Assembly (NCBI RefSeq): GCF_056746865.1
Contig: NZ_CM163382.1
Reading direction: 5' to 3' (one strand)
DNA: 64,000 nt
Shown: positions 40,771 to 44,203 of the stretch, in pieces
Position numbering within the stretch: the first letter of the stretch is position 1
Layout of the letters: every line of letters begins with the position of its first letter
Position numbers and translations under genes: made by a program
Notes under the pieces: generated by a model
Database searches by the model: none
Told to the model about the DNA's origin: nothing
What the model saw: the letters and a program-made list of their open reading frames with translations, nothing else

Positions 40771-41291
40771 GAAAAGGCATTTACACAGAATCCTAAACAG
40801 GCTCATTCAGACAGCTTTTTATTTCACTATGGCTATCCCAGAACAATCAGTACAAATAATAAAAGACATATCACAGCAACACTCCACACTGACAGCGCAA
40901 AAATAAATGCCGCCTTTGTTATCTTCATATACAAGCAACCTGTCCTGATAATCACCAGCTCATGTTTTATTCTTAACCATTCGTCACAAATACAACAAAA
41001 AATAACAGCAGCAGCACCGATATCACAATATAAGATACATTATTCAACACCTGAATCCCCCGCCGCTTCTCTCCCCTTTATAAAACGCCCCTTCCGGAAT
41101 CCAGACCGCTGCAGTGCACGACGAAGATGACCGTATACCGTCTTGTCATTCTGCCCCGTCTCTTCTGTAATCTCCGCAATACTTAAACCTCTGTAATACC
41201 GGTTCAGTACCGCTCTGCGCTCTTCCAGCGTCAACACACCTCCGGCCGCTCTCAGATTCAGCATCGACTTATTCAGAATATGGATTTGCCC

Positions 41292-42197
41292 CTATATTTC
41301 CAGACACCTGTTATCACTTAACCCATTACTGGCCCGCTGCCGTAGATATTCCCGTGGCGAGCGATAACCCAGTGCACTATGCGGATGCCATTCGTTATAA
41401 TGCTCGAACGCCTCTGCAAGGTTCTTTGCTGCCGTTAACCCGTCTGGTTTAGGCATGATACTGATGTAGTCACGCTTTATCGTTTTCACGAAGCTCTCTG
41501 CTATGCCGTTACTCTCCGGACTCCGCACCGCCGTGTTCTTCGGTTCAAGCCCCAACATCCGGGCAAACTGCCGTGTTTCATTAGCCCGGTAGCATGAACC
41601 ATTATCCGTCAGCCACTCTACTGGAGACGCCGGAAGCTCGTTGCCGAAGCGGCGTTCCACCGCTCCCAGCATTACGTCCTGTACTGTTTCACTGTCGAAG
41701 CCGCCCGTAGTGACTGCCCAGTGCAGTGCCTCACGGTCACAGCAGTCCAGCGCGAACGTGACTCGCAGTTTTTCTCCGTTATCACAGCGGAACTCGAACC
41801 CGTCAGAGCACCATCGTTGATTGCTTTCTTTCACGGCCACTTTGCCAGTATGTGCCCGTTTCGATGGCGGTACAGCGGTTTTTCGCTCAAGCAACAGCGC
41901 ATTCTGGCGCATGATCCGGTAAACACGTTTGGCATTGATCGCAGGCATACCATCAAGTTCGGCCTGTCTGCGAAGCAGCGCCCATACCCGACGATAACCA
42001 TACGTGGGCAGCTCTCCGATAACATGGTGTATACGGAGAAGCACATCCGTATCATCTGAGTGACGGCTGCGGCGACCATCTTTCCAGTCATCGGTTCGTC
42101 TGAGAATGACGTGCAACTGCGCACGCGACACCCGGAGACAACGGCTGACTAAGCTTACTCCCCATCCCCGGGCAATAAGGGCGCGTGCGCTATCCAC
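41292..42197 (-). CDS. insD: IS2 transposase InsD (orfB)
   Basis: ...[34 protein letters not shown]...[22 protein letters not shown]... Confidence 0.9.
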
Positions 42198-42565
42198 TTT
42201 TTTGCACGCCCGTATTCAACGGCTTCTTTAAGGAGTTCATTTTCCATCGTTTTTTTGCCGAGCAGGCGCTGGAGTTCTTTAATCTGCTTCATGGCAGCAG
42301 CAAGTTCAGAGGCAGGAACGACCTGCTCTCCTGCGGCCACAGCAGTAAGACTTCCCTCCTGGTATTGCTTGCGCCAGAGAAATAACTGGCTGGCTGCCAC
42401 ACCGTGTTGCCGGGCAACAAGGGAGACCGTCATTCCCGGTTCAAAACTCTGCTGAACAATAGCGATCTTTTCCTGTGTAGTACGCCGTCTGCGTTTCTCC
42501 GGTCCTAAGACATCAATCATCTGCTCTCCAATGACTAGTCTAAAAACTAGTATTAAGACTATCAC
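42155..42565 (-). CDS. insC: IS2 InsC (orfA)
   Basis: [56 protein letters not shown]... Confidence 0.9.
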
Positions 42566-42864
42566 TTATTTAAGTGATATTGGTTGTCTGGAGATTCAGG
42601 GGGCCAGTCTAGAATACAGCAGGCCTCTCCGGTAAAAAGAATACGAACAATATCTGTATACTCATCATCACAGAATACAAAATAATATCTGAATGACCTG
42701 CCTGACTGCACCCTTCTTCTGTCTGATATGGCATCTTCTATATATCTGATTCGACTGCTTACGATTCCAAATATCTCTCGCAGGGCTTTTTCAAAATAAA
42801 TATCTCTCGTCGCCAGGATTATATCCAGCATCTCTGTACCTCATTATATCCCGGGGGACTCCCC

Positions 42865-44203
42865 CATAAGCGCTAACTTAAGGGTTGAACCATCTGAAGA
42901 ATGCGACGCCTCGGTGCCTCGTTAAGACGATGCCTCGCGTTCTTCAATTGCGTTTTGTAGGCTGTCAGGGATACTGTCCCACGAATGGCCACCTGTAAGC
43001 TCCAGATGACCATTTTTGTTATTCTCCACAACGAGTTAGTTCTTCTTTTCGGATCCGGCACTTCTGGGGGGGAAATCCAGCGATGGCTGGATTATGTCGT
43101 CAATTAAAAATGCGGCGAGTAGATTAGCAAATATCCACGCTTTCGCGAGTTCAGGTTCCTTTGCACGCAAAGCATCCAGGTGCAGCAAACTTTTGAGCCG
43201 CTTAAAAGCCAGTTCAATTTGCCATCGCAGACGGTAACAATCAGCCACTTGCTCTGCTGAATATTCATCTTCCGGTAATGATGTTAGCAATAGCACATGG
43301 CCCGCTGCTTCCAGCGTTTCCGCCTGAACTACTCGTCCTTTTCGACGATTCTCGCTGAGCAGTCGGGTTTTACTGATTAATGCTTTTTCGGGAGGAAGTG
43401 ATACGGCAATGAGACGTGCCGGAAAAGGAGCTCCGGCTTTTTTATTACCTGAATTGCCTATCATTACAGTGGTTTCACCGTTCTTACCGCAATCCAGCCC
43501 GCGCAGAAAACCCATCATGTCAAAGCGCATTCCTTCTGCAGTTAACCAGCGCAATCCTCGCCAGTGAACCCGGACGATATAATCAGCTTCTCCAAAAGCA
43601 AGTGAGCGGATACATTCGGGACGCGAACCGAATCCCCGGTCAGCAATGCGTATCTCGTCTGCCGTTTGCGCAAATCGGTCCAGCCGTTCAGCGTCTCTGC
43701 TGTCGGTTAGCTCAAAATCAGTGAACTGACAGGTATGAGGATCATATCCCATATGTAGTCGCCATTCAGCGCTGCCGCCCCCGGGCGCACTGATTGCTGT
43801 TCCATCGACAAGACGCAATCTCTTTCCGCTTGTACAACCCGTAACTGCGGCGCGTACAGCAAGTGTTTGTGCGGCAAGTATGCCAAACCAGTCGGCGGCA
43901 TTCCGCAGCCGCTTCAGGAGAGCCACGTCAGATAATGTTGCAACGTCATGGAGCTGAGCCCATGCAGTGACTTCACGTAATGACATCCCCCCGGGGCCGT
44001 AAGCCAGCCCCAGACGTAGCAGAGTTGCAGCATCACGAATTTCGCGGCGGCGGGTTAGAGCCCCGGCATTACGTGCCGAAGTATCCAGTTCTTCGGGCTT
44101 ACCAATATGGGCCAGAATTGCTGACCAGTTATCGTGAGAGTAATTCATCGGCACGTTAAATCATATCAGGCGTAATACCACAACCCTTAAGTTAGCGCTT
44201 ATG
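42865..44203 (-). mobile_element. IS186 (1339 bp), complete, 11-bp target duplication GGGACTCCCCC
   Basis: Terminal IRs CATAAGCGCTAACTTAAGGGTTG at 42865-42887 and inverted at 44181-44203; identical 11-bp flanks. Confidence 0.9.
43036..44154 (-). CDS. IS186 (IS4 family) transposase
   Basis: MNYSHDNWSAILAHIGKPEELDTSARNAGALTRRREIRDAATLLRLGLAYGPGGMSLREV... Confidence 0.9.
   Translation of the reverse strand: MPMNYSHDNWSAILAHIGKPEELDTSARNAGALTRRREIRDAATLLRLGLAYGPGGMSLREVTAWAQLHDVATLSDVALLKRLRNAADWFGILAAQTLAVRAAVTGCTSGKRLRLVDGTAISAPGGGSAEWRLHMGYDPHTCQFTDFELTDSRDAERLDRFAQTADEIRIADRGFGSRPECIRSLAFGEADYIVRVHWRGLRWLTAEGMRFDMMGFLRGLDCGKNGETTVMIGNSGNKKAGAPFPARLIAVSLPPEKALISKTRLLSENRRKGRVVQAETLEAAGHVLLLTSLPEDEYSAEQVADCYRLRWQIELAFKRLKSLLHLDALRAKEPELAKAWIFANLLAAFLIDDIIQPSLDFPPRSAGSEKKN

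Follow-up and report, generated by a model that had tools for sequence, protein, structure and literature searches.

The locus described here is part of a chromosomal genomic island of E. coli and lies within a 64-kb stretch of DNA, hereafter the window. It comprises an adhesin gene and a small regulator gene, co-oriented and separated by a 61-bp spacer, and two insertion sequences, IS2 in the regulator gene and IS186 in the spacer (Table 1). The adhesin gene is intact and encodes a YadA-like trimeric autotransporter with a 99-bp repeat present in 5.8 copies at 44810-45384 and a C-terminal YadA anchor. An identification as an Eib protein was considered and dropped for want of evidence, a PDB sequence search having matched nothing but the chain of a YadA anchor and a construct that is an adhesin/invasin chimera. 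At every unrearranged locus inspected, the intact regulator gene lay immediately 3' of a YadA-like autotransporter gene, and the same-strand arrangement with the 61-bp spacer was found in the matching genomes and the inspected loci. A literature search on the gene pair returned nothing relevant. Further copies of IS2 or IS186 were not found elsewhere in the window, and Rfam gave no family match anywhere within it. For the right flank, the best match in the collection of complete genomes covered 92% at 98.6% identity.

Table 1. Features of the adhesin-regulator locus, with positions in the window
Feature	Position	Strand	Evidence or remark
Regulator gene, 3' part (gene nt 221-456 including stop)	41040..41275	-	encodes HTH, aa 87-130
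IS2 target-site duplication, copy 1 (GAATA)	41276..41280	.	gene nt 216-220
IS2 (IS3 family), 1331 bp, apparently intact	41281..42611	-	terminal repeats, duplication, NCBIfam
IS2 TnpB ORF	41292-42197	-	NF006918, 708 bits against a cut-off of 597
IS2 TnpA ORF	42155-42520	-	NF006928, 276 bits against a cut-off of 229
Regulator gene, 5' part (gene nt 1-220)	42612..42831	-	ATG at 42831-42829
IS2 target-site duplication, copy 2 (GAATA)	42612-42616		within regulator 5' part
Spacer/leader remnant, 33 bp	42832..42864	-	Shine-Dalgarno GAGG; TATAAT 42843-42848; IS186 duplication copy 42855-42864 (half of GC palindrome)
IS186 (= IS421; IS4 family), 1339 bp	42865..44203	-	23-bp perfect inverted repeats, NCBIfam
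IS186 transposase ORF, 370 aa	43036-44148	-	same direction as regulator and adhesin genes
Remaining spacer	44204..44241	-	second IS186 duplication copy 44204-44213, other palindrome half, then 23 nt to adhesin stop
YadA-like trimeric autotransporter adhesin gene, intact	44242..46008	-	upstream neighbour; 588 aa from ATG 46008

When both elements were excised in silico, a single in-frame ORF of 151 aa was obtained, as had been foreseen in a preliminary description of the region (about 150 aa), and the restored ORF was identical at 456 of 456 nt to the intact allele of strain CFSAN061770. Its intact RefSeq counterpart is WP_000884152.1, annotated as "sigma factor-like HTH DNA-binding protein". 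That description would have been set aside had the restored gene lacked homologs and a conserved intact allele, and a conserved intact allele was found: the locus is carried by 183 of 5426 complete E. coli genomes, at least 165 of which have an uninterrupted copy of the regulator gene. All regulator-locus matches listed overlapped the gene for a YadA-like protein. Each element is flanked by its own target duplication and the gene is restored exactly on excision, which bears out the earlier view of two independent, clean insertions. Because the restored gene carries no further mutations, both insertions appear to be recent.

The IS2 element has imperfect terminal repeats, TGGATTTGCCCC... and TAGACTGGCCCC..., and its TnpA and TnpB ORFs overlap and both match IS2 models. 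The sequence GAATA is present on either side as a 5-bp duplication; the ORF is split as first described, and the frame is regained on excision. Entry was at codon 74, which parts the first 73 residues from the HTH. Compared with known cases of insertional inactivation by IS2, nothing is unusual: a coding sequence is broken by a full-length element of 1331 bp that has duplicated 5 bp of target. Only the window's genome has IS2 at this position, which is free of it in all 5426 complete E. coli genomes.

The IS186 element ends in 23-bp perfect inverted repeats, CATAAGCGCTAACTTAAGGGTTG at both ends. Its single transposase, of the DDE type, matches the IS4-family model NF033592 (133 bits against a cut-off of 115), and its DNA shares 99.5-99.9% identity with elements that carry the annotation IS421/IS186B elsewhere. 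The 11-bp duplication reported earlier, GGGACTCCCCC, is one valid reading; because IS186 ends with C...G, the length is ambiguous, and readings of 10 bp (GGGACTCCCC) or 12 bp give the same restored sequence. The left end of the element lies exactly 33 bp from the regulator ATG, in agreement with the preliminary description. The element entered a GC-rich palindrome, CCCGGGGGGAGTCCCCCGGG (target GGGGGACTCCCCCC), which forms a G/C stem of 8 bp without mismatch, closed by a 4-nt loop, and lies in the spacer 3' of the stop codon of the adhesin gene. The folding energy of the spacer is -34 kcal/mol (z = -3.3). The work of SaiSree et al. in 2001 reportedly gave the target consensus of IS186 as a run of G, three to six bases, and a run of C, and a GC-rich palindromic target with a 10-12-bp duplication is what we found. 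The motif G≥4-N3-6-C≥4 occurs only at the IS186 site in the 64-kb window, as against 2.2 +/- 1.5 occurrences in shuffled sequences.

The same position is occupied by IS186 in 28 other complete genomes, 6 in the orientation of the window and 24 in the opposite one, so that about 15% of locus-bearing complete genomes have the site filled, in both orientations. Three clean insertions were examined (L002, L003 and L006), and all of them carry the identical duplication. In AR_0085 a 3006-bp flank is 100% identical to that of the window while IS186 is inverted; the insertions are therefore independent. In two genomes occupancy of the site by IS186 went together with a deletion that removed the adhesin gene beside it. 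With a sole consensus target in 64 kb and repeated occupancy in both orientations, the suggestion of an insertion hot spot is upheld for IS186. For the lon promoter, two papers that cite SaiSree et al. 2001 describe a hot spot of IS186 insertion in either orientation (PMC3045373, PMC11251521). The two sites have in common repeated insertion, in either orientation, at precisely the same point of a short GC-rich palindrome just upstream of a gene, with a GC-rich duplication of about 10-12 bp. They differ in that the lon site is inside a mapped promoter and insertion there is laboratory-selected because Lon is lowered, whereas the island site, across which no sigma-70 promoter was predicted, is a stem-loop that separates two accessory genes of the same orientation, and insertion there is a natural polymorphism.

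In the restored regulator, Pfam matched Sigma70_r4_2 at aa 87-130 (E = 4e-7), in accord with the sigma-70 region-4-type C-terminal HTH first described. The alternative label given then, LuxR-like, was not supported: the other Pfam matches were to Sigma70_r4 and generic HTH families only, GerE was absent among them, and the match to UhpA was marginal (E = 0.035). What the protein has in common with ECF and sigma-70 factors is its C-terminal 44 residues, which match Sigma70_r4_2 and show a weak alignment to region 4 in many ECF sigma models. Unlike those factors, the regulator has no region 2 that we could find, and its N-terminal 85 residues gave no match of any kind. Against NCBIfam sigma models it scored 19-21 bits, far below cut-offs of 43-220. 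A sigma-70 family sigma factor was therefore rejected, region 4 being present without region 2 and the scores lying under cut-off, and the protein is probably a DNA-binding regulator with region 4 only. Neither a word-indexed search across 5.8 billion proteins nor a full scan with HMMER over 1.84 billion representatives brought up convincing distant homologues; apart from one Salmonella-labelled contig and a few marginal matches confined to the HTH, all hits were near-identical sequences from E. coli. Judged from these searches, the family would be essentially restricted to E. coli. A PHROGs search gave weak sigma-like matches and phrog_6585 (E = 6e-4), a plasmid tblastn search gave no match, and a PDB sequence search with the regulator was uninformative. 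Structure prediction without an alignment reached a pLDDT of 39, too low for use.

The preliminary description placed IS186 between the -10 and -35 hexamers of the regulator, and such an insertion might rewire expression of the gene, either because a -35 is parted from TATAAT as the -10, as at lon, or because transcription of the transposase gene reads through and drives the regulator. A perfect TATAAT is indeed found 16 bp downstream of the end of IS186, the transposase ORF is aimed at the regulator in the window, and the lon promoter provides a precedent (PMC3045373, PMC11251521). A consensus scan for sigma-70 promoters, however, found no -35/-10 pair spanning the IS186 site in the intact allele, TATAAT having no -35 partner at 16-18 bp. 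The hexamer occurs 40 times in the window, and a second copy lies 25 bp further in. Moreover, TATAAT abuts the GAGG Shine-Dalgarno, which is 7 nt before the ATG, and a transcript starting from TATAAT would be without a ribosome-binding site. A position between the two hexamers is thus unsupported, and the site is a stem-loop in the 61-bp spacer. No benefit specific to orientation is evident, given that the opposite orientation is fourfold commoner (24 against 6 genomes), and rewiring is moot in the window's genome, where IS2 has broken the downstream gene. Rewiring is on these grounds distinctly improbable, and co-transcription of the regulator with the adhesin gene would be no less likely than a promoter of its own. 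A literature search on an outward promoter in IS186 found nothing relevant.

A second question is whether some lineages benefit from losing the regulator, for example through a change in adhesin expression or relief of a cost, the two insertions in the window being two steps of selection. Several independent lesions of this 456-bp gene are indeed present in public assemblies, which leaves room for selection. Elsewhere in the gene IS2 was found at nt 148 and nt 298 (L008, L009), making three positions in both orientations with that of the window, an IS21-family element at about nt 136 (L010), a +1 frameshift at nt 194 (L013-L015), and further frameshift alleles (P0009, P0002, P0010). The draft contig L014, with IS186 in the hairpin and a frameshift in the regulator, is likewise a double lesion, and all seven SNPs seen in the gene are non-synonymous, although that sample is tiny and was partly found via protein differences. 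Against selection, the uninterrupted copy is kept in 165 of 183 genomes, and the regulator is annotated as full-length where IS186 lies upstream, in the complete-genome rows and loci inspected (the draft L014 being frameshifted as well). The flanks are equally littered, with IS1, ISL3, IS256, IS66 and IS2 copies outside the regulator gene, as expected of a tolerant accessory region. Once the gene is dead, moreover, a further insertion cannot be selected for silencing it. Finally, the palindrome matches the target preference of IS186, which fully explains the site; target choice therefore suffices, and selection on the regulator need not be invoked. Adaptive loss is accordingly unlikely, if the least so of the alternatives, and the varied lesions fit decay in an IS-rich island. 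Still more doubtful is a combined proposal, in which the region-4-only HTH protein would be a regulator linked to the adhesin, selection would repeatedly favour its loss in some E. coli lineages, and the GC palindrome would be a natural landing pad by which IS186 would uncouple both genes at high frequency, a mutational switch like lon::IS186. As for an assembly artefact with IS copies misplaced in a repeat-rich region, IS-rich regions are generally hard to assemble, and the exact double-insertion allele is present in 0 of 5426 complete genomes. Both elements are nevertheless full-length with perfect duplications, the sequence after excision is 100% identical to a known allele, and the same IS186 junctions occur in other finished genomes. 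The clean duplications and exact restoration therefore rule out chance or misassembly, and we give an artefact next to no weight.

The arrangement very probably reflects the usual activity of mobile elements and not a new system: inactivation by IS2 together with the target-site preference of IS186 in an IS-tolerant accessory island. IS2 transposed into codon 74 and left a null allele of the regulator, a sporadic event in a region that tolerates such elements, and IS186 transposed independently into the spacer palindrome. The regulator is probably co-transcribed with the adhesin gene as a rule, or at least functionally linked to it; IS186 would then uncouple it from upstream transcription and would not split a promoter.

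Some adhesin operons have a regulator gene at their 3' end, as with PapX and MrpJ. In UPEC, the tos operon ends with the genes of TosE and TosF, LuxR-family proteins that have been associated with suppression of motility (PMC5956150). The locus resembles these in having a small HTH gene directly 3' of, and co-oriented with, an adhesin gene; the analogy is positional only, since whole-database searches detected no sequence relationship and there was no GerE/LuxR match. In sum, the two insertions represent textbook insertional inactivation and IS186 target-site preference, and are of little importance in themselves. We nevertheless flag the region-4-only HTH gene, which is essentially E. coli-restricted, often damaged and directly 3' of a variable YadA-like adhesin gene, as a candidate adhesin-linked regulator, and a natural hot spot for IS186 is documented outside the lon promoter.

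Reading of nucleotides 40500-44800, together with a scripted check of the element ends, confirmed that two complete, adjacent insertion sequences have hit the regulator locus of the window, as the preliminary description had claimed. IS2 has imperfect terminal repeats (TGGATTTGCCCC... and TAGACTGGCCCC...) and two overlapping minus-strand ORFs whose scores exceed the curated thresholds of the NCBIfam models IS2 TnpA and IS2 TnpB; it was inserted after regulator nt 220 (codon 74), separating the N-terminal 73 residues from the C-terminal helix-turn-helix (HTH). IS186 encodes a 370-aa IS4-family transposase and is 99.5-99.9% identical to copies annotated elsewhere as IS421/IS186B. 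No second copy of either element was found within the 64-kb window. Because IS186 ends C...G, its duplication is readable as 10, 11 or 12 bp (GGGACTCCCC, with one base more or less per side), and the same sequence is restored whichever length is taken. In-silico excision of each element along with one copy of its duplication gave the expected in-frame product, a single 151-aa minus-strand ORF (ATG 42831, stop 41040), identical at 456/456 nt to the intact allele of E. coli CFSAN061770, which encodes WP_000884152.1. The restored gene thus has no other mutations, and both insertions are therefore recent.

Coordinates of features in the window
Feature	Position	Strand	Remarks
Relaxase fragment (RlxS-like)	2643-3527		
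floR	3744-4958		
tet(A)	5558-6832	minus	
aph(6)-I	8093-8938	minus	
ORF between aph(6) and sul2	8929-9732		
sul2	9793-10608	minus	
Classical autotransporter	12840-16715	minus	1291 aa; beta-barrel domain (TIGR01414)
IS debris	38867-40770		frameshifted ISL3 transposase, complete IS1, 150-bp IS256 remnant directly 3' of regulator
Hydrophobic ORF	40833-40955	minus	MKITKAAFIFALSVWSVAVICLLLFVLIVLG
Hydrophobic ORF	about 40970-41050	minus	...VISVLLLLFFVVFVTNG; roughly 25 aa; overlaps regulator stop codon
IS2	41281-42611		1331 bp; GAATA at each side; ends read and checked by script
IS186	42865-44203		1339 bp; perfect 23-bp inverted repeats CATAAGCGCTAACTTAAGGGTTG
Adhesin gene	44242-46008		588 aa; intact; YadA anchor
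IS5-family element	56115-57131		56.1-57.1 kb

The restored protein matched Pfam Sigma70_r4_2 (E = 4e-7, aa 87-130) and otherwise generic HTH families only; of the "sigma-70 region-4/LuxR-like" HTH first proposed, the region 4 assignment held, and the LuxR-like one was dropped for want of a GerE match. Over the same 45-60 residues NCBIfam sigma-factor models scored 16-21 bits, the cut-offs being 43-220, and the protein, being without region 2, was rejected as a sigma factor. The first 85 residues gave a sole, weak match, to phrog_6585 (E = 6e-4), a phage family without an assigned function, and a single-sequence AlphaFold model was unusable (pLDDT 39). RefSeq names the product "sigma factor-like helix-turn-helix DNA-binding protein", and a literature search found no characterisation of it. 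Two exhaustive protein searches recovered as relatives only near-identical E. coli sequences and one contig labelled Salmonella; the gene had no match in the plasmid collection. That contig (L009, 9.5 kb, from the Salmonella enterica-labelled assembly GCA_024503865.1) is the one case outside E. coli and could represent real transfer, contamination or mislabelling.

Among 5426 complete E. coli genomes, 183 had the restored 936-bp locus at 99% identity or more; it was chromosomal in every case and often multi-copy, and 165 of the 183 had at least one uninterrupted copy; the conserved intact allele on which the preliminary description depended does exist. The locus belongs to an island of the CP4-57 / YfjI-GTPase-DUF932 type. 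In every unrearranged locus inspected, a co-oriented YadA-like trimeric autotransporter (adhesin) gene precedes the regulator, at a distance of 61 bp. The adhesin carries a 99-bp repeat (33 aa, coiled-coil; 5.8 copies, 44810-45384) whose number differs by strain, with annotated products of 452, 513, 522, about 546 and 588 aa; (AGCCTG)x5 at 45913-45943, at the signal-peptide end, encodes AQAQAQ. The IS256 remnant, IS1 and frameshifted ISL3 downstream of the regulator are arranged identically in CFSAN061770 and AR_0085. Just 3' of the regulator are two very short, strongly hydrophobic predicted minus-strand ORFs, candidates for small membrane proteins or toxins, to which the regulator is fused in frameshift alleles of other strains (P0002, P0010). 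Elsewhere in the window a chromosomally embedded resistance module spans 2643-10608, with all resistance genes above NCBIfam cut-offs, and the 1291-aa autotransporter gene is flanked by this module and an AbgT-family transporter gene.

The intact adhesin-regulator spacer reads TGA-CAGGTCAGGATTTAGATATCTGT-CCCGGGGGGAGTCCCCCGGG-ATATAATGAGGTACAGAG-ATG, and the IS186 target within it is a perfect GC palindrome with an 8-bp stem and a 4-nt loop. SaiSree and colleagues are said to have described, in 2001, an IS186 preference for a G run, a few bases and a C run, which the palindrome fits; the only G4-N3-6-C4 motif in the 64-kb window is this target. Junction-specific searches found IS186 at the same exact position in the window's orientation in 6 other complete genomes and in the opposite orientation in 24, with both orientations in 2 genomes, at different locus copies. 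In three fetched clean insertions (L002, L003, L006) the flanks and duplication were base-for-base as in the window. In strain AR_0085 the 3006-bp downstream flank is 100% identical to the window and IS186 is inverted; therefore at least two insertions, and probably several, were independent. The loci L005 (B771) and L007 (F1022) have IS186 (locus 9101-10439) at the same regulator-side junction with a different far flank (GGAGAAAGCCCC...); their adhesin gene is gone, and a truncated fae (K88-like) fimbrial cluster stands in its place beside aerobactin genes, an arrangement that indicates IS186-mediated rearrangement, either deletion or recombination. The lon promoter likewise has a single exact IS186 insertion site, used in either orientation (PMC3045373; PMC11251521). 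The suggestion of an insertion hotspot is thus borne out for IS186 by the only consensus target in the window and its recurrent occupation in both orientations. The site adds a new natural example of a hot-spot behaviour already known for IS186.

When the intact allele was scanned for consensus promoters, no -35/-10 pair was found across the site, and the claim that IS186 lies between a -10 and a -35 is unsupported. At 16-19 bp upstream of TATAAT the hexamers are rich in G/C and do not resemble TTGACA. TATAAT directly adjoins a GAGG Shine-Dalgarno that is well placed, 7 nt before the regulator ATG; a transcript begun at that TATAAT would be without a ribosome-binding site. The window contains 40 occurrences of TATAAT, a second copy lying 25 bp further in. 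Folded as RNA, the spacer forms two hairpins without a U tract (-34 kcal/mol, z = -3.3). Together these features favour co-transcription of the regulator with the adhesin, or at least reliance on upstream transcription.

IS2 at the window's position was absent from all complete genomes searched. Other, independent lesions emerged from truncated protein clusters in the protein search, traced to contigs: IS2 after nt 298 in the opposite orientation (L008), IS2 at nt 148 (L009), an IS21-family ISSso4-like element at about nt 136 (L010), a +1 T frameshift at nt 194 (L013-L015), further frameshifts (P0009, P0002, P0010) and a contig break at nt 69 (L011, L012). L014 has IS186 in the spacer hairpin on top of the nt-194 frameshift. 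SFE8 and 702/18 have IS2-like copies about 120 bp past the stop codon, and L011 has an IS66-family element about 300 bp downstream of the regulator. Seven of seven regulator SNPs were non-synonymous, in a small sample that was in part ascertained by way of protein differences. The lesions are most simply read as decay and IS accumulation in a part of the island that is dispensable and tolerates IS elements; selection for regulator loss, offered in the preliminary description beside a hotspot, seems unlikely. The IS2 insertion is an ordinary knockout of an uncharacterised accessory gene.

Given the conserved adjacency, our best-supported guess is that the intact protein is a DNA-binding regulator with a functional link to the adhesin. 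It would resemble regulators at the distal end of adhesin operons such as TosE/TosF, which have been linked to motility suppression (PMC5956150); the likeness is one of position only, and no homology was detected. In this genome the regulator is null, with the adhesin ORF intact and the adhesin's 3' stem-loop disrupted, and IS186 in the spacer would uncouple the two genes.
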